IMG/VR virus record: IMGVR_UViG_3300033149_005620
Span: 1-56,561 of that record
DNA: 56,561 nucleotides
Source: a virus
Lineage: Duplodnaviria > Caudoviricetes
Direction: 5' to 3' (one strand)
Shown: positions 340 through 54,055 of the stretch, piece by piece
Numbering within the stretch: the stretch's first letter is position 1
Layout of the letters: each line of letters begins with the position of its first letter
Position numbers and translations under genes: made by a program
The notes under the pieces: model-generated
Seen by the model: only the letters and a program-made list of their open reading frames with translations
Databases searched by the model: none
Told to the model about the DNA's origin: nothing

Positions 340-1260
340 CTATTGCCAGACATCCTCTATGACCTTGTGGATTCTCCTGAAATTATCGAGGCTGTAGTGA
401 TCTTCCACCCATTTACGGTAACGTTCCGGCTCGTAATCGGAGTTGGTAATCATCTTAACCGCGTCATCTACCGTTTTGAATACCCACTCCGTAGCGAACT
501 GGTCCGTAGCCCCAGGCCACGCATGAATTACGGGCTTGATCCCCATTGCCATCGCCTCGATGACGTTGTTGGGGTTGCCTTCGTTGATAGACGTTGAAAG
601 AATAAAACCTTTGTCGCTCAACCAGTCATACACCTTGTCAGGCTCTACGCGGCCCTCAAAGCGAAACCTCTCTTGCAGACCCAAGACCTCCCGATAGGAG
701 AGAAGCTGGGGCACGAGTAGGGGATCACCGGAGAAGCAAATATTGTGTATGGTGTAATCCTCCGGCAAACTGAGCAGAATCTGGAACGCAAGCGGAAAGT
801 TCTTCACGTCCCTTACCGCGCAGACAAAGGCTATTTTCTTGCTCTTTGGGGTCTCTTGCCTGAAAGGAATTGCATTGACATCAACCCCGTTGTAGATGAC
901 GTATTGGCGACGTGGGGCGTTTTCCTTCAGCAAATCATTGAATGTGGAGCGGTAATATTCACTCACAAAAATCATGGCATCTACTGCATCAAAGTTGATC
1001 GAGCCTATCAAATTGGGGGTCCAGAGCTCATATCGCCGGAGGTAGCTGATAATTTTCTTGTCCGGGAAGTAGTGGCTCCAAAAATAGGTTGCCTCATTGC
1101 ACCACATGCTGATAAGGAGATCCGCATCTTGTGATTGGGCGCCGAGAGTTTCGCCATCAAGGGAGTCCGTTACAGTGAGGTCGTAGAAGCACCCGAGTTC
1201 CGTTTCAATGTACGGAGCCCAGCGATTCCCCCATTTAGGGTAGTGTAATAGCGCCTTCAT
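340..1260 (-). CDS. Glycosyltransferase, GT-B fold (GT4-like)
   Basis: VIYNGVD, DVKNF and STSINEGNPNNVIEAMAMG (EX7E motif). Confidence 0.9.
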   Translation of the reverse strand: MKALLHYPKWGNRWAPYIETELGCFYDLTVTDSLDGETLGAQSQDADLLISMWCNEATYFWSHYFPDKKIISYLRRYELWTPNLIGSINFDAVDAMIFVSEYYRSTFNDLLKENAPRRQYVIYNGVDVNAIPFRQETPKSKKIAFVCAVRDVKNFPLAFQILLSLPEDYTIHNICFSGDPLLVPQLLSYREVLGLQERFRFEGRVEPDKVYDWLSDKGFILSTSINEGNPNNVIEAMAMGIKPVIHAWPGATDQFATEWVFKTVDDAVKMITNSDYEPERYRKWVEDHYSLDNFRRIHKVIEDVWQ

Positions 1261-1266
1261 CGTCCC

Positions 1267-1890
1267 TTACCTCGCAAGCACCACGAATTGAGACAGCGCC
1301 CCAGGGGAGGACTCGTAAAGGTGCAGGTCCTTTATCAGCGCCCCAAGCGCATCGGCCATAAGGCCAATATCGGTTTGGGTAAATCCCCAATCAAAGGACC
1401 GGTGCCCGGAGTGCCCGCCGCAAGGGTTGTTGATAAATACATAGGCTTCACGAAGCTTGAGTACTCTGCCTATTTCCCTGTAGGCAACCTTCCTGATTGC
1501 AGGGTCCACGTGCTCGAGGACGTCGAAGAGAAGTATGTGATCAAAAAGCCCATCCCTAAAGGGCAGGCGATCTATCCGCGCCTGAAGGGTCGTCAGGCCA
1601 AAGGCCTTTTTTCCCCAGTCACAAAATCGGTGAGAAAGGTCCGTACCCACATAATTGAACTGCCAGCAGAGGTTCTTCAACGTCCCAGCGATAAGGGCTC
1701 GGCCTAGGCCAATTTCCAGTATCTTCAGGTTTTCCACAGAGTAGCGCAGCAGGTAATGCGAAATCGTGCGGGCCTTCTGAGAATTGAATGAGACATGAGA
1801 CGTGTCTCGATTGACGCATGTCTTCGCGAATAGGTCCCAGTAACAGACATCTCTTGGGGTACGTTTTGGCTGCAAGGGATGCTGCCCCAT
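1267..1890 (-). CDS. Class I SAM-dependent methyltransferase
   Basis: ILEIGLGRA motif I, GTDLS, LPFRDGLFD, DVLEHV, RVLK. Confidence 0.85.
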   Translation of the reverse strand: MGQHPLQPKRTPRDVCYWDLFAKTCVNRDTSHVSFNSQKARTISHYLLRYSVENLKILEIGLGRALIAGTLKNLCWQFNYVGTDLSHRFCDWGKKAFGLTTLQARIDRLPFRDGLFDHILLFDVLEHVDPAIRKVAYREIGRVLKLREAYVFINNPCGGHSGHRSFDWGFTQTDIGLMADALGALIKDLHLYESSPGALSQFVVLAR

Positions 1891-2930
1891 TAGACAAGCT
1901 CCCTGTAAAGCGCTTCGAGTTTGTCTATATGGCGTTCCATAGCCCAGTCTCTGGAGCGCCTAGCGATGTTCTTCCTAAAATCCCGGTGCTCCATCCAGCG
2001 CTCTTTCACCTGGCCCATGTTTTCTACCGCCATACCGAAACCGTGCTCTTCAATGAACTGGCCCGGGTGCTTCGCATTTAGGGCGATGACGGGTATGCCA
2101 GCGGCGAGGTATTCAAACAGCTTATTGGGCATAGCGGCCTGCCAGGCAGGGTGAGGCCTGATATTCCCGCACAACCCGTATTCATGCCGGCCTATCTGAC
2201 GAATTAGCCGATCAAATGGATACGATCCCTTCCAGGTTGCTGTCTGGCCGTATGTTTCCTGTATCTCCTTCGTCCCTCCAGGCGTGTAGAGATAGAACGG
2301 GATTCCTCGCTCATGGAATTGCCGCGCGGTCTCCGTATATTCGCAATACCAAAAGCACCAGTGTTCCCTGCCCTGCTCGATTTCCTGGGGGAGATCAACC
2401 CTTCCTTCCATGCAGACTCCTCCGAGCAGCTTCCAGGCGTCCACCCTGTAAAACTCCTCTGGAACATACGAAGGGAGGACTACATAAGGTTGCTCTAGCC
2501 AGTAGGTCTCCCGGACAATCTGCGCCATCGGCTCTGAGACGAAGACAAGTGCATCCGCAAGCTCCATATTGTCGCGCTCATCCTTGCTCCATTTAGGTCT
2601 GTCGGGGTCGTAAGGCGCATCCGGGTCTACCCTCAGAAGGAAGCTGTCGTGGCAATCAAGGACAACGGGCTTATCAGGGAAAATTGACTTGATGATCGTA
2701 ACGAACCACGAGGGCTCGTTATGCGCGTGGAAGATGTCGGCATCCTCGTGAAGCTTGATCGCCTCCTCCATCTGCGCCCTGTGCTGGTAGATGGTAAGCG
2801 TCTTATATCGGTCGCCAAACATTGGAGGCTTGTTTGCGATGCAATGAACCTCGTAACCCTTATCCATGAGCGGAATTGCTTGCTTTTGGACTCTGATGCA
2901 ACAGTGCCGCGCGATCTCGACGATTTTCAT
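1890..2930 (-). CDS. Glycosyltransferase, GT-B fold (GT4-like)
   Basis: DIFHAHN, PVVLDCHD, ADALVFVS, MPNKLFEYLAAGIPVI. Confidence 0.88.
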   Translation of the reverse strand: MKIVEIARHCCIRVQKQAIPLMDKGYEVHCIANKPPMFGDRYKTLTIYQHRAQMEEAIKLHEDADIFHAHNEPSWFVTIIKSIFPDKPVVLDCHDSFLLRVDPDAPYDPDRPKWSKDERDNMELADALVFVSEPMAQIVRETYWLEQPYVVLPSYVPEEFYRVDAWKLLGGVCMEGRVDLPQEIEQGREHWCFWYCEYTETARQFHERGIPFYLYTPGGTKEIQETYGQTATWKGSYPFDRLIRQIGRHEYGLCGNIRPHPAWQAAMPNKLFEYLAAGIPVIALNAKHPGQFIEEHGFGMAVENMGQVKERWMEHRDFRKNIARRSRDWAMERHIDKLEALYRELV

Positions 2931-2953: not shown

Positions 2954-3346
2954 TCAGGTATCCCACTTCGAGCTGTATCTGCGCCTGTAATCAATGAAGC
3001 AAATTATGCTTCCGCTGGCAACGGTACCGGCGCTGTCGATGGTCAAATAGCTCCCTGCGTCCACATTCTTGTCAATGGACTTACTCGCAATGGTCCAGGG
3101 CGCCGAGTCCGTCGAAGCCACTACCGTTGCGAGCGTTGAAGAGTTGCGCTTTAAGTTGACCGTGACCTCGGTGCCACCTTGCGTTGCCCGGTGCTGGATC
3201 CCGAATTTCAAAATCTTGATTGGGCCTTTGGGATAGAACCTCTTCACCAGGGTGTTGTCACCGTTTATGAGGACCGAATCCTGATAGGCATGGAAGTGAA
3301 GGCGCTCAACAACGCCATACTGTGCATCACTATAAAATGAGGGCAT
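2954..3346 (-). CDS. Putative capsid decoration protein, paralog 2
   Basis: 130 aa, beta/Ser/Thr-rich, just downstream of the capsid gene; 109/130 identical to 3419..3811 by manual count. Confidence 0.55.
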   Translation of the reverse strand: MPSFYSDAQYGVVERLHFHAYQDSVLINGDNTLVKRFYPKGPIKILKFGIQHRATQGGTEVTVNLKRNSSTLATVVASTDSAPWTIASKSIDKNVDAGSYLTIDSAGTVASGSIICFIDYRRRYSSKWDT

Positions 3347-3418
3347 AAGTCACCCCTTTAAGTGAAGGGGGCTCCTGAAAGCCCCCATTCGTTTACGAAG
3401 TTTTAGAATATGGCGTCG

Positions 3419-3811
3419 CTAGACGTCCCACTTAGTGCTGTAGCGCCGCCTGTACTCGATGAAACAGATTATAGATCCTGTCGCAACGGTACCTGCGCTG
3501 TCCACGGTGAGATAGGAGCCCGCGTCGCAGTTCTTGTCGAGCGACTTGCTGGCTATGGTCCACGGTGCTGAATCCGTGGAGGCAACAACTGTAGCCAGCG
3601 TTGACGAATTCCTTTTGAGGTTAACTGTTACCTCGGTACCGCCCTGGGTCGCGATGTGCTGGATCCCAAACTTCAAGATCTTGATCGGACCCTTGGGGTA
3701 GAACCTCTTCACGAGAGTTTTATCCCCGGCCAGCGTCTTCTCCGCCTGGTGTGCGGTGAGATAAAGCCTCTCCCTCACGCCGTATTGTGCGTCGTCGTAG
3801 AAACTTGGCAT
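3419..3811 (-). CDS. Putative capsid decoration protein, paralog 1
   Basis: 130 aa directly after the major capsid gene; GGTGAGGA RBS. Confidence 0.55.
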   Translation of the reverse strand: MPSFYDDAQYGVRERLYLTAHQAEKTLAGDKTLVKRFYPKGPIKILKFGIQHIATQGGTEVTVNLKRNSSTLATVVASTDSAPWTIASKSLDKNCDAGSYLTVDSAGTVATGSIICFIEYRRRYSTKWDV

Positions 3812-3829: not shown

Positions 3830-5070
3830 CTATGATGCCGAATCCCATTTGAGGATTCGACACTGGGCGGCCGCTGTGTGGACGATCCCGAAGCCCCCGA
3901 GGTAATACCACGCTACCCCCTTCGACCGGCCATAGTCTGTGGGGATTTTCCCGCGCATCTCCTCGGGAACCGCAATTGCCTCGGCGACCGTATCCTCCCC
4001 AAAGAAGAACGCCCAGTCGCTCTTGGCCTTGTTCCAGGCATCGGCCGTTTTCGTATCGGCGTCCCAGGTTGTGGAATCCGCCGCTCCGCCCTTCGGAATC
4101 TGGGTCTGCTCCACGAAACGGCAATTGTCGTACCGGCCAATCTCACCGTTCATGATGAGCTGGAAGCCCTGCGTCACATACTGATAGACGCCCTCAAGGT
4201 CCGTTTTGAGCTGCCGGAACGTGGACGGCCATGCGAGTACGTAGTAGTCGTCCTCAATGTAGGGCGGGATGTTCCGCTCCTTCATGGTGTCGACTACCAG
4301 CCCAATGTGCTGCTTCTTCAGGGCAACGTCGTTGGTCAGGGTCGCGGTTCCGTTCGTGGTCAGAGTAACCGCCGTGGTAGACGTCCCAGCCGTCGGAACG
4401 ACGCGAAGAACGCAGGCATTGAACTGGGCATGTGCCGCTATGTCAAAGGCCTTCTTTGCGTCATTCTTCAGGACCTTGTTGATGATCTCCGTGACCGGGT
4501 GCTCGGAAAGATTATCAAGCTTCCCGGAGTAGGGAACGCTATTGCCATACTCATCAATGGTCAAGGTTCCCTGGGTGATCGTGAATTGTGTTTCGGGCAT
4601 GGTTTTCGTTTCAGTGAGCTTCGTGCCCTGTGTCGAAACGTCACTGTATACATTCCAGTGGAACGTATCGCCTTTTTTCAGCCCCTGTTGCGTTGCATCT
4701 TTTACATCGCAAAACTGCAATCTGTTACTTTCATGACCGCATGGGCGGACGCCCTGTTGGGGTAGCCTCCCCGGTTTCTCTTGAGGCGTTATGCCGGGGT
4801 TCAGACTGTCGCATCACTGGATATTGGTATTTTCTCTCCAGTGCCCGCTCGCTCAGTCGTTCACGCTGCCCACACGCCCTCCTTTAGGGTGGCGTTGCTT
4901 GCGCCTTGTCGCCCGCGCCCGGGCTTCCAAGTCAATCAGAGCGGGTTTTACTTCCGCCATTCTTAACGGAACTTGATCAGAGGCTGAACAGCCATCCTGA
5001 GCTTTTTACTCAGGTTGAGTGAATACATGTACCCACCCAAGGTATTCACCGCCCATAACTGTCCAGGCAT
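3830..5070 (-). CDS. Major capsid protein (N4 gp56-like), split by an intron: exon 1 5070-4966, exon 2 4717-3830, 330 aa spliced
   Basis: AAAGGAG RBS, then MPGQLWAVNTLGGYMYSLNLSKKLRMAVQPLIKFR, joining in frame to QFCDVKDA... Capsid-like EYGNSV, GEIGRY and DYGRSKGVAWY; follows portal and scaffold. Confidence 0.9.
4718..4965 (-). ncRNA. Group I self-splicing intron, 248 nt, no homing endonuclease
   Basis: P1 UUCCGU|UA-AGAA-UGGCGGAA with a U.G pair at the 5' splice site; P3 CCCGCUC(4945-4939)/GAGCGGG(4850-4844); P7 GACUG(4858-4854)/CAGUC(4808-4804); P8 CACUGGA/UCCAGUG; terminal G at 4718. Removal restores the reading frame. Confidence 0.92.
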
Positions 5071-5085
5071 ACTTCTTACTCCTTT

Positions 5086-6225
5086 CTATCTGGTTTGCCC
5101 TCGGACCTTCATGATTTCTTGCACGGCCTCCGCGCGGGCCTGCTCTTCCGTTTTCTCCTGGTCCGAAGGGGTAGTGGTTTCTTGTTTTGCACTGACGGGT
5201 TTTGGCTCGTCAATGCCCTTCTTCTTCTCTTCTTTTTCTTTCATGTCCGCGACTTTAGGTTTAGGGGGGGGCTTGGGTTTGACGGCCTCTTCCCTGGCTT
5301 TTCTGACCTCTGCGCCCGCTGCGGCGTACGTTTCCCATACATTGGGTTCGCCGGCGGCCAGTTTCTCATTGACAATCCGGGTAACCTCCGCCATCAGGTA
5401 GGGGTTCTCCCCGAGGTCCTGGAAGCCTCCACTTTCCGCGGGTTGAAAGAACTTTTGACGAATCACTTCGGCAGCCTGCTCTTTAGCCTGCTCTTCTCGC
5501 TGCTCAAGGGCCTTCTGCACCTCTTCCTGAATCATCTCGGGCGTGATAGCGGGGGTAGTGCCGCGTCCGGCCGCGATGATCTCGTCTATGGCAGCGGCTG
5601 CCTCGTCTTCGTCTCCGTACTGGATAGCCTGTATCCAGGCGCGCTTCTTTTCATTGAACTCGGCATCGCGCTCTTCCGGGGTCTTGCCGTCGGGTGACCC
5701 ATCCGTCTTTGTGGGTGCCTCGGCGGCTTTTTTCGTCGCTTCCTCTAGCAACTCTTCGGCCTGCTTTTTGAGCCGTGATGCCTCTTCGAGGCGTTTATCC
5801 GCAGCTGACTCCTTCTGGAGCGTCCTTATCCCGGCCTCCTTCACCTTGCTCAATGGCACTTTTTGTTCGGTCCCGTCAATAACAAGGGTAACCTCTTCTT
5901 CGTACCGCTCTAGCTCCTGTTGCTCTTTCTCTTTCTTTGCAGCCTCAGCCTCGTCGATCGCGTGCTCCCCCGAAGTCTCCTCCCCCGCCTGGTCCGTTTC
6001 GTTCCCTTCTGGTTCCTCCTGGGCAGGCTCTTCAATGTCCAGTTTCATTCCGTCCTCTTCAACTCTTTGACGGTCGACATTGGCTGCAATCTGGTCAAGA
6101 GCGCTCAGACGCACGTCTGCGGCCTTCTCTCGGCCTTGACTCTCCAGCTGCTGCTTTTCTTCTTCTGTGAGATCCTCGTTGTCCGCGCCCTTGGGGGTAG
6201 CGTCCTGTTTTTCGGGATCTGCCAT
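5086..6225 (-). CDS. Capsid scaffolding protein
   Basis: Acidic coiled-coil protein with VTLVIDGTEQKVPL, located between portal and capsid genes. Confidence 0.75.
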   Translation of the reverse strand: MADPEKQDATPKGADNEDLTEEEKQQLESQGREKAADVRLSALDQIAANVDRQRVEEDGMKLDIEEPAQEEPEGNETDQAGEETSGEHAIDEAEAAKKEKEQQELERYEEEVTLVIDGTEQKVPLSKVKEAGIRTLQKESAADKRLEEASRLKKQAEELLEEATKKAAEAPTKTDGSPDGKTPEERDAEFNEKKRAWIQAIQYGDEDEAAAAIDEIIAAGRGTTPAITPEMIQEEVQKALEQREEQAKEQAAEVIRQKFFQPAESGGFQDLGENPYLMAEVTRIVNEKLAAGEPNVWETYAAAGAEVRKAREEAVKPKPPPKPKVADMKEKEEKKKGIDEPKPVSAKQETTTPSDQEKTEEQARAEAVQEIMKVRGQTR

Positions 6226-21083: not shown

Positions 21084-21338
21084 ATGACCACCAAAATCGT
21101 CATAGTCAAGCAGCATCTCTACGAAACCATCAAGGCCGATTTTAGGCGCCAGGGCTGGGAGTTCTGCTCCGCGGTGTTTAAGGGAGGCCTGGTCACGCTT
21201 GAGTTTAGCCTAACCCCGCCACGCCCCGCCAAGCCACGGCATGCCCTGCCAAGCTGGGCCACGTTGGGCCAAGCCTCGCCATGCCATGGAAACCAAAAAA
21301 CCAGTAAGGAGGACAGCAGATGTATGAAATCGAAGTAA
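21084..21338 (+). CDS. Small hypothetical protein, nearly leaderless; its C-terminal half reads through array 1
   Basis: The first ~43 aa look protein-like; the rest is repeat-derived low complexity (PPRPAKPRHA). Confidence 0.45.
   Translation: MTTKIVIVKQHLYETIKADFRRQGWEFCSAVFKGGLVTLEFSLTPPRPAKPRHALPSWATLGQASPCHGNQKTSKEDSRCMKSK
21206..21285. repeat. Pentamer array 1: 16 x NN-RCC (GGY-NN on the minus strand), candidate guide RNA
   Basis: taGCC taACC ccGCC acGCC ccGCC aaGCC acGGC atGCC ctGCC aaGCT ggGCC acGTT ggGCC aaGCC tcGCC atGCC. Confidence 0.9.
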
Positions 21339-21919
21339 CGGTAAGAGGTTTGACGCCGATCCTGATGCACAGCGCAAGAGCGATGATGGCCCAGGCCAGC
21401 GTAAGGACGCGCAGCCAGTCAATCCCGCTCTCGGAAGACGAAGCGGAGCTATCGGCGTACAAGACCGAGGATGGATTTCTCTACATGCCAGGTGATGCAT
21501 TTCGCTCATCCATCGTCCAGGCCGCCGGGCCTTACAAGCAGGGTCGCACCTCGGTCAAGAGCGTGCTGAGCGGCGCGATCCTGGAGATGAAACCGGAAGA
21601 GCTGATCCTGGTGCGTGATGGCAAACGCATCACCGAATACGCAGTGGATGTCCGCAGGGTGGTAGTGCAGGGGAACGCGGTCCTGCGCTCCAGGGCCAGG
21701 ATAGACCTCCCCTGGGAGACAACGTGGGAGATGTGGATCGATGAGAACATGTTCAACGAAAGCTTCATCAAGGATACCCTGCCAGATATTATCAACCGCG
21801 CCGGACTGGTGATAGGCGTGGGGGACTTCCGGCCCGGATCTCCGAAGTGCAAGACGGGGAGATTCGGGCGATACGAGATTGCGAAGTATGAGTTCCCGGT
21901 TAAGAAGGGGGGCAAGTAA
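21320..21919 (+). CDS. Stand-alone RAMP/Cas7-like protein
   Basis: N-terminal beta strand plus TP (IEVTVRGLTPILMH), YMPGDAFRSSI (like RAMP iPGSslKG), thumb-like VDVRRVVVQGNAVLRSRARI, C-terminal Gly-rich loop GVGDFRPGSPKCKTGRFGRY; AAGGAGG RBS. Confidence 0.72.
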   Translation: MYEIEVTVRGLTPILMHSARAMMAQASVRTRSQSIPLSEDEAELSAYKTEDGFLYMPGDAFRSSIVQAAGPYKQGRTSVKSVLSGAILEMKPEELILVRDGKRITEYAVDVRRVVVQGNAVLRSRARIDLPWETTWEMWIDENMFNESFIKDTLPDIINRAGLVIGVGDFRPGSPKCKTGRFGRYEIAKYEFPVKKGGK

Positions 21920-33715: not shown

Positions 33716-33945
33716 TCGGGGCATTGGAGCGGGCAAGGGCCGGAAGCCCTATAAGGCGGTCACTGAATGCCCAAGCACAAGTTGTCCCTTGCACCGATAT
33801 CGCATTGGGAAAGACCCTGGTCGAAAGAAAAAGGGTGGCAACCCGAAAGTAATTCAGGATTCCGTCTCGGCCTATCTTAGGTAGGCCAAAATTACCCCAA
33901 CTCAGTTGGCAATTTTTGAACGAGACTTGATTTTCTATGGCCTCC

Positions 33946-33974
33946 TTGACATCTACCCCTTACCAACGTAAGAT
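33946..33974 (+). promoter_or_regulatory. Sigma70 promoter of the integrase
   Basis: TTGACA(33946)-17 bp-TAAGAT(33969); implies the true start is the ATG at 34015. Confidence 0.7.
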
Positions 33975-34014
33975 CGGCCCCGTATCAGCCAAATCTGGGG
34001 TTGGGGGCGATTGC

Positions 34015-35157
34015 ATGAAAGGGGGAATCTATTCTGATGAAAAGTGCCCCTTATGCGGGGGCAGGTTTAAAGATGATGGTCGGAGGGGACTCTTCTGCCC
34101 GAACCATCCAGAGCAAAGGGCCAGCAGGCGGTTTCGGATCTACTTCAGGGGGGTCACACGGCGTTTCAGGAGCTACGAGGCCGCTCAAAAATGCCTCACT
34201 GGCCTCAGGTTCAAGGAGGATGAGGGAACGTTCGACCCCAGGGAATATCGGGCTGATAATCCCCTTGGGTTTGAAAATCTAGCCAATGAGTGGCTCCGCC
34301 TCCGAGAGGCGGAGATCAGGCCGGACGGCATCAGCCCAAACACCTATCGGGCCCTTGAAGACCATATTTGGAAGGCGATTCGAGTTTTTGGCCCTGTCAG
34401 CGTAAAACGCCTGCGCCTGAAAGACTTCCAGTTTTTTCTCACCCAGTATAACGTCAGCAATAAGAGCAAATTCAATTATATTCAGACACTTAAGCAGTTC
34501 TTCAAGTGGCTTTACGATAATGATGAGATCTCGGTAATGCCCAAGTTCCCGAAGGTCCAGTTTGAGCTTCGCCGGCGAAAGACTGTTACGAAGGCAGACC
34601 AATTCGGTATCTTGGATACGCTGAAGGGGTGGGCCCCCTACAAGACCTGGCTGGGCATCAAATGGATGACCACCTACTTTAACGTGCGGCCCGAGGAATG
34701 GCGCAATATCCGGGAAGGGGACATCAACCTGAAGGCAAGAGAGATCCTGATACGGCACCCCAAGGAGAATAGGTCCAAAATCGTGTATCTCATTGACGAA
34801 GACGTGGAGATCTTGGGGGCCCTACCCCCTTGCATAGATCCTGACGCCTATTTCTTCCGCCATAAGAATGGGAGGCAATTCGGCGAGAAACATTTTTACA
34901 AGTGGTGGAAGCGGGCCTGTGCCAAGCTCGGAATCCAGGGAGTGGACCTCTACGGGGGCACTACCCACTCAACCACCAGGGCTCTCAGAAAATACCGCAC
35001 CCCGGAGGAGATCCGCTATGGCTCGATGAGGAGCACTACCAAGGCATTTGACCGCTACTACTGGGAGGAAGGAGACGACCTCAGGGCCATCTATTCCGAT
35101 GCTAGGGGTGGCAAAAAAGTGGCAAAGAAATTTAGGCACTCCGAAAGCGATAACTAA
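34015..35157 (+). CDS. int: Tyrosine integrase with N-terminal Zn ribbon
   Basis: CPLCGG...CPNH; core-binding helices; VRPEE, HPKE, LYGGTTHS, FDRYY; adjacent attP. Confidence 0.88.
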   Translation: MKGGIYSDEKCPLCGGRFKDDGRRGLFCPNHPEQRASRRFRIYFRGVTRRFRSYEAAQKCLTGLRFKEDEGTFDPREYRADNPLGFENLANEWLRLREAEIRPDGISPNTYRALEDHIWKAIRVFGPVSVKRLRLKDFQFFLTQYNVSNKSKFNYIQTLKQFFKWLYDNDEISVMPKFPKVQFELRRRKTVTKADQFGILDTLKGWAPYKTWLGIKWMTTYFNVRPEEWRNIREGDINLKAREILIRHPKENRSKIVYLIDEDVEILGALPPCIDPDAYFFRHKNGRQFGEKHFYKWWKRACAKLGIQGVDLYGGTTHSTTRALRKYRTPEEIRYGSMRSTTKAFDRYYWEEGDDLRAIYSDARGGKKVAKKFRHSESDN

Positions 35158-38085: not shown

Positions 38086-38135
38086 AAGTATGGCAAGTCG
38101 TGGCAGTTTATGGCGTTTTATGGCATCTTATGGCA
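38086..38135. repeat. Five 10-bp tandem units NNNNNTGGCR
   Basis: aagtatggca agtcgtggca gtttatggcg ttttatggca tcttatggca. Confidence 0.75.
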
Positions 38136-41100
38136 TCGCCTGCCTTAGGCGTTCCCTTTTTGGGGGCCGGAATGCCCGCCTGATATTGTTTCGTATGGAT
38201 TTCCGGGTGATGAGGGGTGCGAGGCGCTCAAGCCCGTGCGCCCTTACCGCTTCGTTGTAATCTTGAATTTCAGCGATGATATCCAACCAATCCGCCTTGG
38301 ACCGTTCAGATAGGGGACGCAGGTAAAAGCGCTTGATCTTGGCGTAGATATCCGTCCTCATTTCTCGATATTTCTGTTCAATGCGCCTCTCCTTCCATTG
38401 CTTCTCCCTAATCCCCGCGATCCTTGCGGGATTAAAGGAGAGAGCTCTGTAAAGTGCATCAATCGTCTCCGGGAGGAGCGGTTCATTGCCCCAGAAGACG
38501 GGTGCATTGTTTCTGGTGGTCACCCCCTCTGTGGTCTCTCTATATGCCTTTACTATTCCGGCCATGAAGAGCGGTAGTTCATTTTCGATGCCCTTTAGGA
38601 CGTCGCCACGCAAAATGCTTTGTGGACCGCGGTAGAATGTTTCAGATATGACGCTTCCAGGAGCGCCAAGGATTTCGGGTATCGTCGTTGGGATGTCGGT
38701 AATTCCGATCTGAAGCGAACCCTTAAGGGATACGCCTGCGAGACCGAAAGCGCCGAACCTGCCGAATCGCTCAGCGTATTCGCCAAAATTCCGGTTCAAC
38801 CAGTCGTAAAATTTTTCCTCTGGGTCTTCTCCGCCTATGCCCAGGGCTTGAGCGATTGCCGTTATGATAGGCGTAGAGACAGTCGCCCCAGTCCCGGCCA
38901 GCACGGCTGGACTCAGGAGCATCCACGAAAAAGCCTTTGCGTGCTCGGGCTTCCAGCCGGGACCCCACACTCGCTTCATGGTCAGAAGGTAGTTGTGCGA
39001 AAAGGTCCGGAATACGTAAAACATTCTGGCAATTTGCGCGGCAGGATTGGCGCCCCTAGCGAGGTATGGGATATTCGCCTTTCCGTAAACTCCGTGAGCC
39101 TTGTCTGAGACCTCCTTTGCAATGCGCAGGGCTTCGTCGTGGTTAAAGCTCCCTTGGGGTGTTTGGAGCTTCAATCCAAGGTAAGTGCCTGCAATTGTCG
39201 AAACCCTGTTGAGTTGCTCGGTAGCCCCGAAGCCGAGCATGGCCCATTCGATTGCCCTGTTCCACCCTCGGCCTAGCTTGCTCTCAAGAACTGACAGCGC
39301 TTCGCGATTGTATTGCGACTTGTGCCAGCCTTTCTGTTCGATCTCCTCAAAAAGGTCCTTGACGTGCTGCGGTAATTTATCCTTGTCACCGAATTTATAG
39401 TGGCCGTAAAGCCTGGAGGCGTTGCCGATGAGACGGAAGGTCTTGTGTATCGGGATCCCAGCGATACCTTCCATAGCTGCCGGGACTGACGTTACCATGG
39501 CAGTGAGGTTCACCAAGGGGGCGCTGATGCGGCCGCCTAGATATTTCAGCACCGCCACGCCCTTGACTGTGCCCACGAACCGGTCAATCCACTCTTCGTT
39601 CCTGAGCACGTCCTGCAGGTACGCTTTGCCTTCCCTGAAGGCATTGGGCTGTTTCGTGGGGTTGACCCGCCGGTCCTCCACCATGTTGAGCCACTCCTCA
39701 TACGTGGCGTCCTCGCCCTCAAGGGTCTTGTACTGCTGCCAGGTAATGTCTGTGCCAGTGAACGCTCGAACCATGTCAAGCGCTGCGATCCTTTTAGCCT
39801 CCCCTGCGGCCAACCCCGACGCATATTTCGCCGCGGCAATAGCCGGGTCCTCCTCATAACCGATCCAGACATCCTTGCCCTTGGCCATTTGGCGCTGGAT
39901 CATGTGGGCACGGTGCCCACGACCCTTTATGATGTTGGCCACTTGCTCGGCCATGGCTTTTGCGAACAGTACCTGCACCTCTTGGTCAACTATGCCAACT
40001 GAGTTGGCCAGCGCCTTTGCGACCTTTTTGTCGAAATTCGGGCCAGGGTTGTAGAAATGCCAGGCCCTCGGCTCCCCTTCATACGCTGAATAGAACTTTC
40101 CGCCCAGCTCCTTAAAGACCCGTGTCATCCTCTTGGATGTCGGTCCGGTGATAACGAAGTCCCTGAGCCCTGGCCTTACCATCCTGTCGGTCCACTGGAG
40201 GTTAAAGTCCTCTAAAGATAGTCCGCGCGCATGTATACGCTCAAGGGCCTGATTGATCTGCGCCTGCATGGCAATGACCTGGCCTGCCATTTCGAAGACG
40301 TCTTCCGGCATCTTGGGGGAGAGATCCTTCGTGACGGTGTACCCTTTCCTTTGGAGTTCTGTGTGCCGCTTGGCAAGAAGCGTTTTGGTGTCAAAGAATT
40401 CCATGATCGGGTTTTCGCCCTTCTTTTCGGCGTACAGCACGAATCGCCCGGGCCTTCTTATGCGCGGGAAGTAGTAACCTCGCATATCCCCCATCATGGC
40501 TAGGGCGGTTTTGAGGTCAACTTCTACCCTTTTGTTGTCCAGCCTGACCGCTACTGAGGGTAGTGCCGTACCCGACTCCTCATATTGGCTGATAATTTCG
40601 CGCATCGAAGCTGACAGGATATTAAAGCCTTTATGCATGATTAGCCGGAAGGACACCACCGCGTCAACGGCTTGGTCGGGAAAGCCGCGCTTTCTAAGGT
40701 CCTGAGCCTCCATTTGAACGGCAGCGCCCCATGCCTTGGCCTCAGAGTCATAACTGCCCACTAACTGGCCGTTTGGTTTCCTGAGCTTCCATAGGTCGCT
40801 ACCCTCGTCTTTCTCAACCCTGTACCCTATTTGGTTGCGGTCGCGGTTGACTAGGTACGCCTTGACCTTAGCGTAGTCCTGTTTGTGGCGCTTTCTGAAG
40901 TCCTCCAGCTTTTTGGTAAGGTATTCACCTTTACTGTTCTTGGTTAGGAGATTCAGGTACTCATAGTAGGTGTCGGGCCTGGCAAGAGCCGCCTCGTACA
41001 TTCTCCTTAAAGCGGGGACCTTCTCAAAGTGATGTGCCGGCACTGATATGAGGCGGTCGAGGACCGTGGTATCTGGCTTTTGAGCTTTCCACCCAGCTTT

Positions 41101-44100
41101 GCGGTTCTTCCATATTTCCCCAAGCGTGCGGAGGGGGCCTAAGGACCCCCTTGAAAAACCCTGTTCGTATTTCTTCTCTTCAGCCTGAAAAGTGCCTTTG
41201 CGTCCGCCGTATTTTTCCCAGGTCTCGATCACGTGCCTGTTCCAGTCATCAAATGTGCCTGAGAAATGCTTGGTCGGAACTATGCGGGGCTCGACTTCTG
41301 CTTCTTTCCCCGGGGGCTCCGCCAAAGAGAAAGCCGTCGTAGTCTCTTCGATCTCTGGTGCGCCAAAATGCGGGACATACTGCCCGGTGACCATTTTGCC
41401 CCAGATATCCTCGGGACGGGTAAAACCCTGTCCCTTGAGCCCGTTCCTAATGATTTGCAGGTAGCGGCGCAACCTCATCATGATTGCGCGGATCATGTTG
41501 GGCTTATCTTTGAGCGATGAGCGATTCACCATGAATTCCGCAAAGGCATCCGCAGCGGCCTCCTCGCTACCAAAATATTTTATCAAGTGCTCCGCATCGG
41601 ATTTTGTCAGTAGCCATCTCTGGGCCACGTGCATGTATTCGTGATAGGTGGTGCGTTCCAGCCCTTTCAAATTCTGAAGCGACAGGGCAAGTTCCATAAT
41701 CGCGCGATAATCGTCAAAGGTGGTAGCACCAAAAATCTGGCGTATCCCCATGCCCTGTTCCTGCCACTCCTTCACTGACTTGGCAATATTTTTTCCGCTC
41801 AAGGAGATTATGGGCTTTAGCTCTACATCAATGCGCTCAAGCACTTCGGGAGGTGCTCCGGCTTTTTCGAGCCAGGAGTGAACCAGCTTGGCGGTCCTTT
41901 TGATATTTCGGAATTGGCGCGGGGATAGGCGGTATGGTTGTTCGCCGCGGAGAGCTAGTTTGGTTTCGGAAAGAAGCGTGGCATATTTTGTGGGACCTTT
42001 GCCACGCCCTTGTCGCGAAGCCCACGATTGGGCTTCCCAAAATACGTCTACTATCGTCAAACCTTCAATTCCGTTCCACAGGGCATTGACGTAGTCCGAG
42101 CGCGCCTGGGTTAGCACGCTGTTGTTGACGATCATTCCGCTGGCGTTGGTGGCTTCGGCGATCCTTAGAACGTCGGCGGTGGTCTGCTTCATGCTTCTGC
42201 CTTTGATAAAGGGCACAAAGGCAAGCACCCTGTTTTTGCGGTCAAGGAGCATAACGCCATCGTCATTATTGAATTGCTCCTTCAGGGCTTTGAGCGCGTC
42301 CTCCGAATCGACGATTCTAGTCTGTGGGGCGCCGCCGAGAAGCAGGCTGCGCTCTTTCACCGGAAGGCTAATTTTGCGAATTCTGGGGCGGATCTTCCTT
42401 GTTGTCTCTGCCACTTCCCCTGGGCGCATCTCAACGTATTCGGTTCCACCAAGAATAAGTGATGTCAGTTCCACATCGCCAGCCTCAAGAAGGCTCCTGA
42501 CGCTTGAAGTTATCTGGTAATCTTCTTTGCCTGGTTTCGGGTCACCTGTGGGATGGTTGTGGACGAGATAAGCTTCAGATGCCCCAGGTATGTTCAGTAT
42601 CCGCCCAGCAAGTTCAACGGGGTTGGCTATGGCACCGGCGCTGTGACCCTTGGCGTACTTGTGGATCTCAAGGATTCCACCTTCTTTATCAGTCGTTACC
42701 GTGTAAAGGAATTCTTGTGGCGATTTTCTGAGGAAGGCGAGGAGGGCTGCAACATCCTCTGGGCCTGATACGAGTTCTCCCGCCGCTCTAATTCGTCCGG
42801 TTGTGGAAACTCGCACACGTCTACGGGGAGGTACTTTACGATCCTCTTGCCGTTCGGCAGGCTTGAAATCAAATAGTGAATATTGCTCTTGGGGCGTGGT
42901 AGGTGCATAAATGTATTGTGCCCCGCTTTCACCTATCTTGTCAACACCTCTCTCAAAAATATCAAGCGTTTCCCCCTTCTCCGGGGCAAGCAGACTCTTC
43001 TGTTTGCCGGTGGTAGGGGGTTTAACCTTTTCTTTGGGGATAGCGGCTTTAGGCTTGAGGTATTGCTGAAAGACTCGGGCGGCCTTTGCCTGGTCAATCG
43101 TAAAGGTTTCCGGGTCAAAGCCCAGTTCTTTGAGGCCCTCCCAGGAGCCTTCGACTTCGTAGTAGATCCGGCCTTCACTGTCCCTGCCTCTTATGAGCTT
43201 GCGGCCATCGGGGAGTTTAATGATTTCTCGATCCCCTTCCCGATATGCCTTGATGGGCTTTTCAATCTCGCCTTTTGCCCTCAGTAATTCGACCCTCTCT
43301 TGAGGCGTTGGCTCGGTCGGTTTGAGTTCAAGGGCTGGTCTTGCAGCCTTCTCCCTTGGCTGTGCTTTCTCGACTTCTTTGGGTTTCTGCGCAGCCTCCA
43401 GCTTACTCAGTGTAACGGAATCGTATATCTTATACCAGTCTTTCGCGTCCATGCCCGGCTTTAAGCCAGTCTTTCTAATCCAGTGGCTCCAGGATTCCTG
43501 CCTACCAACACCCTTGGCTTTAAGTTCCGCTGCGAACTCTTCGGGGTTTAGCGGTACTACCTTAATTTTCAGCCTTGCTCCCAAAAGTTCCTTGTGCGCT
43601 TCATCCAGTGTTATTAGGCCGCGCTTCAACCGATCAATCGTCCCGTAAAAACCTTTGGCTTCAAGTTGCTTCACGATGTCTTCATAGGATTTTTTGGACG
43701 CGGATGGGGGAATCCTGCGACTTGTCCAAGTGGTCCGCCCATTTGGTTCCCTCTGAAGGACGTAGACAAGGCCCTTTTCGTCGTCATAGAGCTTCCAGGT
43801 CTCAGCGCTTTCCCTTCCCGTACCGGGCAGGCGTTCGACCCGAGCCCCGGCTTTCTTGGCTTTTTCAATAGCCCTGATAATCTTTTCACGCGGGGTGTAA
43901 TGCCATTTCTTTTCCGTGGGATCCCACACGCTTTGCTGCACAGCGTGAACCCATCCAATGGCATCGTCTATAGATTTGCTCTCAGGAGGGCTCTTTCTGG
44001 CGGGGGGTCTTTCTGCCTGCTTCTCTTCGGCGGGTTTCAGGCCGAGCTCTTTATCAAGCCAGTCCTGGTCTTCTTGGGAAATCTCCTTCCATGCTTCGTC

Positions 44101-47088: not shown

Positions 47089-47090
47089 TT

Positions 47091-48623
47091 TTACTTCTCC
47101 TCGCTTCTGAGTCCGGCTGTTCCAGGAATCCTTATGCCCAAGAGGGCATTGCCAGCCCAATTCAAGCCTTTCCAATAGGTCTTGAAGGCCTCCCGGAGGT
47201 ATTGCTCAGTCCACTTATCCGCCTTCCGCACCTTCTTGAAGAACTTCTTGAATGAGTCGAAGTCCACCACCTTTTCATCTTCCGGTAAAAGTGGGAGGTA
47301 CTCTGCCGCTACTGCGCCAGCGCGCTCGGGACTCATGCCCGATACAAGCCGTTTCCCAATCTCTTTTGCCGCCTCAGCAATTGTCAGGTTCTGGGTTGCC
47401 TCCTTGCGCAGTTCCTGGCGTATGGCGTTGACTTCTGGCGAAACCGGAGGGGGACCCTCAATCTGCTGGGCATTAAGGGCATCCCTAAAACGCTCTTGCG
47501 CTTCCGGGTTCTGCTTGAAGTAAGCTTCTGTTGCAGCCCGAACCTTGGGAAGACTCATAGGGTCAACGCCCTGTTTGAGTAGCTCGGCATGGATAGCGAC
47601 AAGCTTGGAAAACAATGAGCCAGCAGTCGGTTGGGTCGGCGCCGCAGGTGCCGTTGCTCTTGGAGCCTCCGGTAATGCTGATGGCGTTATAGGCGCTCCA
47701 CGAGGGGCTATTCCTGTAGGTTGAGCTAAAGCGTTGGTTGGTCTTTGGCCGCGGATTTGGTCTATCTGTTTCATGGTTTCTTCGAGGCGTCGAGTTGCGG
47801 CCGCTGCCTGTTCTGGAGGCACAACAGGGTTGCCCTGAAGATCCTTTTCTCCCATGCGGTACGCCTGTATTATTTCAATCTCTGCTTTTGCCTTCTCTTC
47901 GAGCAAGTTCAGCCTGCTCTTTTGCGCCGGGGTCAATCCAGGCTGCTCGTATTTTGCCCTGATTCTCTGCTTGGCTTCCTCAAGGTCAAGCAACTCTTCC
48001 TTGGTGGAGGGCTCCCACTTCTTCCTCTTTCCAATTCGTTCATCATAGGTCTGGTACCGCACCGGATCTTCTGCTTTCTTCGCCCGAGCCTCCGCCTTGG
48101 GAAGGTTATAAACCCTCCGCTCAGCCGTGTCGTATAAGGGCTCAATTTCCCCAGCTTTACCGAACTTGATACCGACATTATGTGCAGCTGCGAAATCAAA
48201 GAATCTGGCTTGGTATTCCGGGTTCTGGTGAATTTGGGGCAAATACTGCCTGAGTTCCTCCATCACGGTCTTGACGTCTTGGGGGTCCCCAATTACCTCG
48301 GTGCCATCAGCAAAGGTGTAGTGGCGGTCGTTTTTATCTATACGCCACGTTTCAGCTGGAGGGTCTGAATCTGGCTCCAAAGCCTTGAAGGCCTTGTCAG
48401 CAAGGTCCTTGTTCCCGGTTTTCTCATAGGTGTCAATGTAAGCGTTAAAGGCATCCAGACTTCGTTTCGCCTTCTCGTATTCCTCTGCTCTGCCTACGTC
48501 CCTCAAATCTCGCTCCGCCAATGCCTGCCTCGTCTGGAGGTATTTCAGGCTTAAAGCGTTTTGCATTGACTTGCCTATTGAGGGGACAGGCGGCGGATTC
48601 ACTAAAAAATTAGCCATTTTCAT
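47091..48623 (-). CDS. Putative DNA ejection/internal virion protein
   Basis: Helical Ala/Gln/Pro-rich protein between the pilot gene and the giant gene. Confidence 0.6.
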   Translation of the reverse strand: MKMANFLVNPPPVPSIGKSMQNALSLKYLQTRQALAERDLRDVGRAEEYEKAKRSLDAFNAYIDTYEKTGNKDLADKAFKALEPDSDPPAETWRIDKNDRHYTFADGTEVIGDPQDVKTVMEELRQYLPQIHQNPEYQARFFDFAAAHNVGIKFGKAGEIEPLYDTAERRVYNLPKAEARAKKAEDPVRYQTYDERIGKRKKWEPSTKEELLDLEEAKQRIRAKYEQPGLTPAQKSRLNLLEEKAKAEIEIIQAYRMGEKDLQGNPVVPPEQAAAATRRLEETMKQIDQIRGQRPTNALAQPTGIAPRGAPITPSALPEAPRATAPAAPTQPTAGSLFSKLVAIHAELLKQGVDPMSLPKVRAATEAYFKQNPEAQERFRDALNAQQIEGPPPVSPEVNAIRQELRKEATQNLTIAEAAKEIGKRLVSGMSPERAGAVAAEYLPLLPEDEKVVDFDSFKKFFKKVRKADKWTEQYLREAFKTYWKGLNWAGNALLGIRIPGTAGLRSEEK

Positions 48624-53117: not shown

Positions 53118-54055
53118 AAGTCTTTGTCCGGCTCAAAGTAGACGTCCGAGTTCTCCGGTTCAAACATATTGGCTATACCCAAGGATTCGTTGGCGTGCGC
53201 AATGATTACTGCGGCCCTGTCCTTGCTACTCGGGAACTTTGCGAGTAGCTCCTTGGCCAGGTTCCACTTCAGCGTTCTGTGCCATTCACGTGTAAAGTCA
53301 GGATTGTCCTTAGTGCTATCAAAATCCTCTATCGGAAGTAGAGCCACGAACACAATGCTGTCTGTAGTGACGCTCGGAGTGGCGTTGAGATAGATCCTCA
53401 GCTCGTCAATCCTTTTTTCGTAGTAAATCTTAGTCGGGGTGCCGCTTGCGTCCTTATCGCCAATTCCCATGTATTCAGCTTGGGATATGATATCCATGGG
53501 AGTATCTTCGCCATCAGAGGTACGCCTTAGGGGGTCCATGATTTCCGTTGGTGGCCCGTACTGTTCGCTGTTCCCGGATATTGTCGCAAGGTTGGAGCTT
53601 GCTCCAACGTTCAGATTTTCTGATTGAAAGGTCCCGGATTGGCCCTCAATTATGAGCTCGCCGGCCGCATCGCCACCAGCCCAGCTGCCAGATGTCACCT
53701 CTACCGCCATGACTTTTGCAGTTGCGCTGGAGGTTGCACCAGCAATGGTGTCCCCTACCGCAATGGCCGTCGTGCCCCCCGAGGTGAAGGCTAGGCGTCG
53801 AATTTGCAGGGCATACTTGTCGGTAGATGTTAGGTCCAAAGTGAGTTGCCGCCGTTTCCACATTTTGAGACCCGGCGTGACAGGGCTCCCGGGACCCATC
53901 CACTGCTTGACAAGGAGATTCAGGGCGCGCAACGCAGTTGCCGAGTCTTCCGCCGATACGGTTTGCCCTGCACCAACCACCCCGAGCTCTTCAAGCGCGT
54001 CTTGGATAAGTTGACTGGCGGTTACCGTATAATCTGCAGAGCCGGACGATGCCAT
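53114..54055 (-). CDS. Head-tail adaptor with inserted beta domain
   Basis: TASQLIQDALEELGV...ALRALNLLVKQW and LKWNLAKEL flanking a Gly/Thr/Ser-rich insert. Confidence 0.72.
   Translation of the reverse strand: MASSGSADYTVTASQLIQDALEELGVVGAGQTVSAEDSATALRALNLLVKQWMGPGSPVTPGLKMWKRRQLTLDLTSTDKYALQIRRLAFTSGGTTAIAVGDTIAGATSSATAKVMAVEVTSGSWAGGDAAGELIIEGQSGTFQSENLNVGASSNLATISGNSEQYGPPTEIMDPLRRTSDGEDTPMDIISQAEYMGIGDKDASGTPTKIYYEKRIDELRIYLNATPSVTTDSIVFVALLPIEDFDSTKDNPDFTREWHRTLKWNLAKELLAKFPSSKDRAAVIIAHANESLGIANMFEPENSDVYFEPDKDL

Follow-up and report, generated by a model that had tools for sequence, protein, structure and literature searches.

A probable group I intron, without a reading frame, that divides the major capsid gene in a complete phage genome

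Introduction

How can the major capsid gene of a complete phage genome appear to lack the sequence for its own N-terminus? This question is raised by the viral record IMGVR_UViG_3300033149_005620, which was analysed over its whole length of 56,561 nt and is referred to here as the window. The genome is complete, bears direct terminal repeats and reaches 100 for completeness in CheckV. On the minus strand of the window, an N4-gp56-type major capsid gene is divided by an insert of 248 nt at positions 4965-4718. We argue, with a probability of about 0.88, that this insert is a functional group I intron that contains no open reading frame (ORF). A first-pass annotation, made from the sequence alone, had placed such an intron at 4718..4965, and these coordinates correspond exactly to the insert.

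The divided capsid gene and the limits of its insert

The features of the divided gene are as follows, with R1 denoting the covariance model of the intron family described below and a slash, in this text, marking the exon junction.

5085-5079, minus strand: ribosome-binding site AAAGGAG of capsid exon 1, with an 8-nt spacer before the ATG and just past the stop of a 379-aa ORF
5070-4966, minus strand: capsid exon 1, 35 codons ending ...LIKFR, with the ATG at 5070 and the last codon, CGU, at 4968-4966
4966, minus strand: predicted 5' splice site, U4966 being the final base of exon 1
4965-4718, minus strand: predicted group I intron, 248 nt, without a reading frame of its own; 254 bits against R1, of which the window is a seed
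4965-4963, minus strand: in-frame UAA formed by the first three bases of the intron, directly after CGU
4717-3830, minus strand: capsid exon 2, 295 codons plus stop, beginning with CAG (Q36); PF13252, phrog_1357, 6058 homologues

The mechanically called capsid ORF spans 4720-3830 and encodes 296 aa from a TTG start, the G of which (4718) is the final base of the insert. Its product matches PF13252 (32.4 bits) and phrog_1357 'major head protein' (E 1.3e-22). Because these matches begin only at profile positions 48 and 62, respectively, the called product lacks its N-terminus, as the first-pass annotation had recognized. The same annotation located the missing portion in a 35-codon exon, 248 nt upstream, that has a ribosome-binding site and runs immediately into TAA. 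This exon is borne out by the AAAGGAG at 5085-5079, the ATG at 5070 and the UAA at 4965-4963.

Capsid relatives in a large protein collection number 6058 at E ≤ 0.001, and many of the best 120 listed are 326-337 aa in length. Among the 16 homologues taken for alignment, ten possess an N-terminal extension that aligns to exon 1, with nine reading KFRQF and one KWRQF at the junction; the other six start with M or L followed by QF, the same as the truncated call in the window. The closest of these, P0006 (330 aa, 83% identical), aligns residue-for-residue with exon 1. At the nucleotide level, 76 of 80 related capsid loci of viral contigs have the homologue of exon 2 directly behind that of exon 1, without an intervening base (tblastn). 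The commonest uninterrupted junction, TTCCGT/CAGTT, is identical to the two flanks of the window insert when joined, and TTCCGT is found in 36 of these 76 loci. Removal of the insert restores the frame exactly and gives a joined product of 330 residues. The joined exons read ...KFR/QF..., as do nine of the ten full-length proteins and the 76 contiguous loci, and the junction ...LIKFR/QFCDV... proposed at the outset agrees with the intronless homologues. The insert is real, its limits are 4965-4718, and its removal restores the capsid gene.

Within the insert, only frames of 28-61 codons are found, none with a family match, and the description of the element as ORF-less holds. The further statement that the genome carries no homing endonuclease agrees with a Pfam scan, in which no HNH, LAGLIDADG or GIY-YIG domain was detected among the 60 ORFs of the complete genome. 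An early in-frame stop, as seen here, is the rule among members of the wider intron family, most of which begin with TAA, TAG, TGA or an A-rich triplet.

A divided gene of this kind could conceivably be expressed without splicing, if the 35-residue peptide and the 296-residue protein from the TTG at 4720 were made apart and assembled, or if the N-terminal arm were dispensable. Gene callers indeed produce 296-aa products beginning M-QF or L-QF for the six homologues noted above. In the 10 nt before the TTG, however, nothing resembles a Shine-Dalgarno sequence, and the G of this codon doubles as the conserved terminal G of the intron. Where 296-aa calls occur elsewhere, they too go with introns at this site. 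Two separate polypeptides would also leave a conserved, covarying RNA structure of 248 nt unexplained, and this arrangement is regarded as highly improbable.

Predicted RNA structure of the insert

The structure of the insert was drawn from the window sequence and an alignment with the introns of L104 and L119 (loci on other contigs are designated by L-numbers). Its elements are listed here in minus-strand coordinates.

4971-4966 (UUCCGU) with 4957-4952 (GCGGAA), minus strand: P1, with the wobble U4966.G4957 at the cleavage site
4951-4946, minus strand: J1/3 (GUAAAA), which runs straight into the 5' strand of P3, with no P2
4945-4939 with 4850-4844, minus strand: P3, which crosses P7 to form a pseudoknot
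4931-4928 with 4908-4905, minus strand: P4, enclosing P5; in the minimum-energy fold
4924-4920 with 4915-4911, loop 4919-4916, minus strand: P5; in the minimum-energy fold
4904-4901 with 4866-4863, minus strand: P6; covariation
4900-4867, minus strand: predicted lineage-specific extension of P6; minimum-energy structure only
A4860, bulged C4859 and G4858-G4854 with 4808-4804 plus U4803, minus strand: P7, including the pair G4858-C4804
4843-4837 with 4821-4815, minus strand: P8 hairpin; covariation; in the minimum-energy fold
4814-4809, minus strand: J8/7, which together with the 3' strand of P7 aligns to the classical S element seen in the Rfam-positive introns of this site
4799-4794 with 4774-4769, minus strand: P9 hairpin; covariation
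4768-4718, minus strand: 3' peripheral region with two predicted small hairpins, which are from the minimum-energy fold only
G4718, minus strand: end of the conserved 3' tail ...GUAACAGAUUG, the terminal G and predicted 3' splice site, directly before CAG of exon 2

The minimum-energy fold has -96.5 kcal/mol (z -2.6), a value matched by 3 of 200 shuffles, and P3, P4, P5, P8 and P9 appear in it as drawn. In the window copy, every pair of the nine helices forms. The core follows the order P3-P4-P5-P6-P7-P3'-P8-P7'-P9, including the P3/P7 pseudoknot, and is backed by covariation; P7.1 and P7.2, like P2, are absent from the window intron. Beside the bulged C4859, the pair G4858-C4804 is presumably the guanosine-binding pair, by analogy with solved group I introns. 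The 3' tail and its terminal G are common to the window, L028, L034, L104 and L116; as ...AACAGAUUG, the tail is shared by the window with L028, L104 and L116.

At the level of sequence, then, the insert displays a P1 with U.G at the splice site, a P3/P7 core, a J8/7 strand at 4814-4809, a P7 with a bulge and an adjoining G-C pair, and a terminal G. Most of these elements had been pointed out in the first-pass annotation, which listed P1 with its U.G, P3, P7, P8 and the terminal G; each of them is present, and the architecture is strongly supported by covariation in two independent sets of relatives.

Covariation and conservation among relatives

Loci for comparison were picked with a 25-position motif spanning J1/3 to P4, which occurs in 118 or more viral contigs and in 121 or more from metagenomes. 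The covariance model R1, seeded with the window, L104 and L119, gave 101 matches (E ≤ 0.001) from 84 sources in the viral set and 96 matches from 81 sources in the metagenome set. R1 carries mis-nested P3/P7 pairs, and the pair counts were made with P3/P7 written as a pseudoknot. Across 81 distinct rows of the viral set, 94.0% of 3159 cells are paired, as compared with 68.6% after shuffling (0 of 500 shuffles reach the observed value) and 38-42.5% when partners are slid by 1-3 columns. The metagenome set behaves in the same manner, with 94.3% of 3519 cells paired across 90 distinct rows, 68.2% after shuffling and 39-43% after sliding by 1-3 columns. Changes on both sides of the pair are seen at 43 of 45 pairs in the viral set and at 41 of 45 in the metagenome set.

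This support extends to each helix of the core (paired values are for the viral and metagenome sets, in that order). P1 is 98.8% paired, and all six of its pairs have changed on both sides, tracking the differing exon contexts, while the splice-site U.G is kept in 66 of 73 and 74 of 83 rows. P3 is 95.1% and 96.1% paired, with 7/7 pairs changed on both sides, and P7 is 91.2% and 92.5% paired, its closing pair having shifted from A-U to G-C in 28 and 32 rows. Neither of these two helices was used in fitting the alignments, and their pairing of 91-96% therefore serves as an independent check. The column of G4858-C4804 is G-C in 67 of 77 and 74 of 84 rows. In the P4-P6 domain, P4 is 99.4% and 98.9% paired, P5 is 84.1% and 83.4% paired (5/5 pairs covary), and P6 is 98.4% and 99.1% paired (4/4 pairs covary). 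P8 is 89.8% and 90.8% paired, with covariation at 7/7 pairs, and P9 is 95.0% and 95.6% paired, with covariation at 6/6 and 5/6 pairs. Close relatives, in L119, L104 and L116, have the same intron with compensatory changes, which points to selection on its structure.

Conservation column by column tells much the same. Among the 80 other distinct rows, 44 columns are conserved to 90% or more, and the window copy carries the family's base in every one; these columns include J5/4, J6/7, P7, J7/3 and J8/7, which lie outside the selection motif. The UAAAA of J1/3 is 95-100% conserved, these being bases that the selection motif itself contains. Together, the predicted pairings and this conservation make up the architecture by which group I introns are defined, and the window copy looks intact.

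An insert that Rfam does not recognize might also be a decayed and inactive intron remnant, or another kind of insertion, in which case the capsid gene would be a pseudogene and the genome defective or helper-dependent. Neither the intact conserved positions nor the perfectly paired helices of the window copy fit such decay, nor do the compensatory changes among its three close relatives. Moreover, exon 2 is uninterrupted over its 295 codons and the genome is complete with its terminal repeats. Decay is thus a very unlikely account of the insert.

Assignment to group I and points that weigh against it

Several observations count against a functional group I intron. The Infernal check proposed in the first-pass annotation fails on the window copy: Rfam's group I model RF00028 gives no match at its gathering score on the whole window, nor at E ≤ 10 on positions 4600-5100, and it matches none of 12 sister introns of the window type at E ≤ 1. 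The alignments used for covariation stem from a model seeded with the window itself, and conservation across J1/3-P3-J3/4-P4 is partly a matter of ascertainment because the loci were picked by the 25-nt motif. The pair counts cover P1 and P3-P9, with P9.0, P10 and the 3' peripheral hairpins outside them, and the argument for splicing as a whole is drawn from comparison of sequence and structure.

Owing to the lack of an Rfam match, the identification as group I rests on comparative structure. A bridge to recognized introns is nevertheless provided by R1, which links RF00028-positive introns at the same capsid site to the window type (L028 at 45.2 bits; L090, L097 and L106 at 32-35 bits). A match to sRNA P26 on 4600-5100 (16.6 bits, E 0.62) was rejected as chance, and an intein was considered and rejected. 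A blastn search of the intron against GenBank phages returned only two partial matches of 61 nt each.

Other ways of crossing the gap can be imagined. One is a group II intron; another is ribosomal bypassing of the kind known from T4 gene 60, which the stop directly after the take-off position resembles. The gap of 248 nt is, however, five times that of gene 60, and the CGU before it has no matching landing codon before CAG. Group II introns are marked by a 5' GUGYG, a 3' AY and six domains including domain V, and are usually longer than 400 nt. With its UAAGA start, UUG end and length of 248 nt, the insert does not conform to GUGYG...AY and was rejected as a group II intron, and group II models gave no match at E ≤ 10 on 4600-5100. 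Covariation of the group I pairings further argues against both mechanisms, which are credited with next to no probability.

Proposed splicing pathway

For the group I intron favoured here, a course of catalysis and in vivo splicing can be proposed. The last six bases of exon 1 would pair with the internal guide, leaving the U.G wobble at the cleavage site, while the P3-P8 and P4-P6 domains would build the catalytic core, including the P3/P7 pseudoknot. A free guanosine, held at the P7 pair G4858-C4804 beside the bulged C4859, would attack after U4966. The terminal G4718 would then replace this guanosine in the binding site, and the freed 3'-OH of exon 1 would attack after G4718 to ligate the exons (...AAG UUC CGU + CAG UUU UGC...), such that the 330-residue capsid protein could be made. 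On unspliced RNA, the UAA formed by the first intron bases would halt ribosomes, and it is soundly inferred from the sequence that capsid synthesis would depend on splicing, as the first-pass annotation had suggested. The most highly expressed late gene would then be able to tolerate reliance on RNA splicing.

Whether the RNA would act unaided is a separate matter. A variant that overlaps with the preferred explanation holds that the intron is a genuine group I intron but not autonomous, and needs a protein chaperone or maturase of host or phage origin, or ongoing translation of exon 1, for splicing at the rate that the most abundant late protein demands. Self-splicing group I introns of ~200-250 nt, such as the Azoarcus and Anabaena tRNA introns, are well known, and nothing in the sequence resembles a protein-binding platform; both points count against this variant. 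In its favour, the intron is small, its P4 (4 bp) and P5 (5 bp) are short, and it has neither P2 nor large peripheral domains; further, the window copy has no maturase-like frame, while relatives at the same site carry LAGLIDADG-type frames. One study also describes phage introns that failed to splice in vitro and suggests missing factors (PMC11878797). On balance, a need for such assistance appears unlikely, although it retains some weight.

Other introns at the same capsid site

In other phages, the KFR/QF capsid site holds introns of 233-768 nt. The four of the 80 capsid loci that are not contiguous here are L005, L014, L028 and L034. The inserts of L005, L028 and L034 (721, 768 and 751 nt) follow the same TTCCGT, end ...AACAG(A)(A)UUG/CAG and each contain a frame of 178-218 codons that bears a WLAGxxDGEG motif; the 3' part of the L005 insert matches RF00028 (36.2 bits, E 4.6e-6). 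The first intron of L014 (2119-2444; RF00028, 84.5 bits) lies at or within a few bases of the window's site, its P1 using exon bases ~5 nt upstream of the window's splice site, and a second intron (3253-3530; RF00028, 58.6 bits) lies deeper in the same capsid gene. A pattern of the common P1 and J1/3 bases is found in 50 more viral contigs, with both capsid exons recognizable in 19. The inserts of these 19 lie exactly at this site, measure 233, 245, 288, 393 or 638-751 nt, and represent 12 distinct sequences.

Two forms of intron occupy the site. One has classical P/Q/R/S elements and comprises L090 (288 nt, without a reading frame; RF00028, 70.8 bits) and the long frame-bearing inserts; the other is the window type, represented by the window, L104, L119 and L116. 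Both forms have P1, the J1/3 bases, P7-P9 and the 3' tail in common, but differ in the P4-P6 domain. Among frames of 178-220 codons at the site, the WLAGxxDGEG motif is seen by eye in 8 of 8. The Pfam LAGLIDADG_1 model matches that of L034 above its cut-off (27.5 bits) and those of L102, L105 and L125 weakly, with no match at E ≤ 0.01 in the frames of L005, L028, L091 and L096.

Because relatives at the same site carry LAGLIDADG-type frames, the lineage appears to be a homing one. Most probably, the window copy descends from this lineage, or travels as its passenger, without an endonuclease, which was either lost or never gained. One may speculate that an occupied site is uncuttable by such an endonuclease, perhaps favouring retention of the intron. 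With endonuclease-bearing, endonuclease-free and structurally divergent introns at one capsid site, the locus offers a natural system for the study of homing, endonuclease loss and intron replacement.

Individual loci are more elaborate still. In L116, the window-type intron at this site (1207-1599, 393 nt) has an insert of ~150 nt in its P6 loop, within which a Cys-rich frame of 73 codons has no Pfam match; a second intron (1769-2053; RF00028, 75.2 bits) lies ~170 nt further into exon 2. In L104, a segment at 1346-1574 on the minus strand of the locus scores 49.3 bits with RF00028 (gathering score 50) just upstream of the window-type intron. Because exon 1 homology in L104 spans only residues 13-35, two introns may split the opening 35 codons of its capsid gene.

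Spread and host genes of the family

Host genes were assigned by translating the open frames that flank family members and scanning them against PHROGs, using 50 pieces from the viral set (the longer ones of 92) and 44 from the metagenome set (all of at least 80 aa).

Major head protein: viral 17/50 (phrog_1357, 283, 14242, 1328); metagenome 10/44
Ribonucleotide reductase: viral 16/50; metagenome 21/44
Portal: viral 2/50; metagenome 0/44
Queuine tRNA-ribosyltransferase: viral 1/50; metagenome 0/44
HNH endonuclease: viral 1/50; metagenome 0/44
No PHROGs match: viral 13/50; metagenome 13/44

The family is one of compact introns (~200-250 nt) without P2, and by these sequence assignments its main hosts are genes for the major head protein and for ribonucleotide reductase. 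Within capsid genes it occupies several distinct sites, as the profile positions at which phrog_1357 matches start or end vary, and two or three family copies are found in one locus in L141, L158, L182, L183 and L208. In L147 (665-889 and 890-1065), and also in L155, L157 and L168, two family introns stand nearly back to back with an apparent micro-exon of ~16 nt between them, its boundaries being derived from the alignment.

Members of the family also lie unannotated in public records. In MW202674.1 (L372, 16872-17088 of the record), a full-length R1 match (110.7 bits) falls in the gap between two coding sequences named 'P22 coat protein'. In the cultured Roseobacter phage CRP-118 (OR420741.1; L371, 35056-35455 of the record), the 5' two-thirds of R1 match (82.9 bits) in the gap between two 'ribonucleotide reductase' coding sequences, gp44 and gp45; a term search of the CRP-118 paper found no occurrence of the word 'intron' (PMC11092137). 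Carriage by a cultured phage, like the completeness of the window genome, counts in favour of a functional intron. These two genes are mis-split in the records, much as the capsid genes of the window phage and of many environmental phages are mis-called as a truncated 296-aa protein. A covariance model of the family would recover hundreds of introns that are missed by Rfam's model.

A broader proposal can be put forward tentatively, and we hold it to be somewhat less probable than its converse. It states that the compact, ORF-less and P2-less introns form a large family unseen by RF00028, for which capsid genes of several unrelated head-protein families would be as important a niche as ribonucleotide reductase. 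It adds that the copy at KFR/QF may persist by destroying a LAGLIDADG target, which would protect its phage from cleavage during co-infection.

Relation to known introns

The best-documented phage group I introns reside in genes for nucleotide metabolism, polymerases, terminases and lysins, and in this respect the first-pass annotation was correct. A 2025 study of the Bastillevirinae asks why introns colonize 'only' such genes, and also identifies Twort orf142 as a tail tube protein (PMC11878797). If true, a capsid niche contradicts the view that introns colonize essentially only nucleotide-metabolism, polymerase and terminase genes. The novelty that the first-pass annotation attached to a capsid host was nonetheless overstated, as capsid introns have already been published for LittleE, Tuc2009 and crAss-like phages. 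For LittleE, splicing was demonstrated by reverse transcription PCR and by N-terminal protein sequencing across the junction (PMC3706429; Pope et al. 2013), and the same paper refers to a capsid-gene intron of lactococcal phage Tuc2009. Among crAss-like phages, those of the Delta and Zeta groups are described as having group I introns in major capsid protein (MCP) genes (PMC7886860; Yutin et al. 2021), and gut jumbo phages are reported to abound in small introns, ~206 nt on average (PMC12363816). Group I introns in capsid genes are therefore known; what is added here is a further, structurally supported case, together with a large family invisible to Rfam for which capsid genes are a major niche. 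The few documented phage capsid introns thereby gain not only one structurally well-supported example but a whole family.

The LittleE intron resembles that of the window in its location in the major capsid gene, in an exon 1 that ends with U and an intron that ends with G, and in its absence from close relatives. It differs in its length of 819 bp, in a putative homing-endonuclease frame on the opposite strand, and in residing in an HK97-like T=13 siphovirus capsid gene. It was also called 'most likely group I' without a structure, whereas the window intron has a covariation-backed structure and its splicing is predicted from sequence. The crAss-like introns are similar in that they occupy core late genes, including that of the MCP, with several per capsid gene (compare L014, L116, L141 and L208). 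In contrast to the window intron, which has no protein domain, they were recognized by way of their endonuclease domains, and they belong to another lineage and capsid family.

With the classical introns (T4 td, nrdB and nrdD; Twort nrdE and orf142; SPO1 pol; RF00028), the window intron has in common the P1-P9 core with its P3/P7 pseudoknot, the U.G and the terminal G, as well as an early stop codon, a highly conserved coding site and a sporadic distribution among relatives. It departs from them in that it is not matched by RF00028, lacks P2, P7.1 and P7.2, and has a P4 and J3/4 that differ from the P/Q elements. Its host gene is likewise a capsid gene and not one of nucleotide metabolism, although the family is found in ribonucleotide reductase genes as well. 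The lysin intron of Streptococcus thermophilus phages offers a parallel, in that one site has full-length and shortened ORF-less forms (Foley et al. 2000, as cited in PMC8541194). It differs in its gene, and the short and long forms at the capsid site differ also in P4-P6, beyond a deletion of the frame. No description of the present family or capsid site was found in the open-access literature; it may already be catalogued in GISSD or among the models of PMC11835236.

Genome and neighbourhood

All genes in the capsid part of the window lie on the minus strand. Upstream of exon 1 is an acidic ORF of 379 aa (stop at 5088-5086), which had no family match in a domain scan and is probably the scaffold. 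An SU10-type portal (PF23899, 109.6 bits) is found in the capsid neighbourhood, and other neighbours include glycosyltransferases, methyltransferases and a protein of 3015 aa that bears InPase and RadC-like domains. The nearest named capsids, from Vibrio phages of 50-52 kb, are 51% identical. Within the window, R1 matches only once, at the capsid intron; a second copy at 21272-21355 was rejected (E 0.27).

A 406-aa ORF on the plus strand (33937-35157) has a weak Phage_integrase match of 23 bits, below the cut-off of 27.1, which may hint at a temperate lifestyle. The capsid module is followed immediately downstream (340-2930, minus strand) by a cluster of two glycosyltransferases and one methyltransferase, and a further ORF with a methyltransferase domain lies at 54022-55509. 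The 3015-aa ORF (38128-47175, minus strand) combines an inorganic-pyrophosphatase domain (PF18823, 200.7 bits) with a RadC-like JAB domain (PF04002, 57.1 bits), and may encode a giant internal or ejected virion protein because it adjoins a P22 gp7-like ejection protein, itself a weak match.

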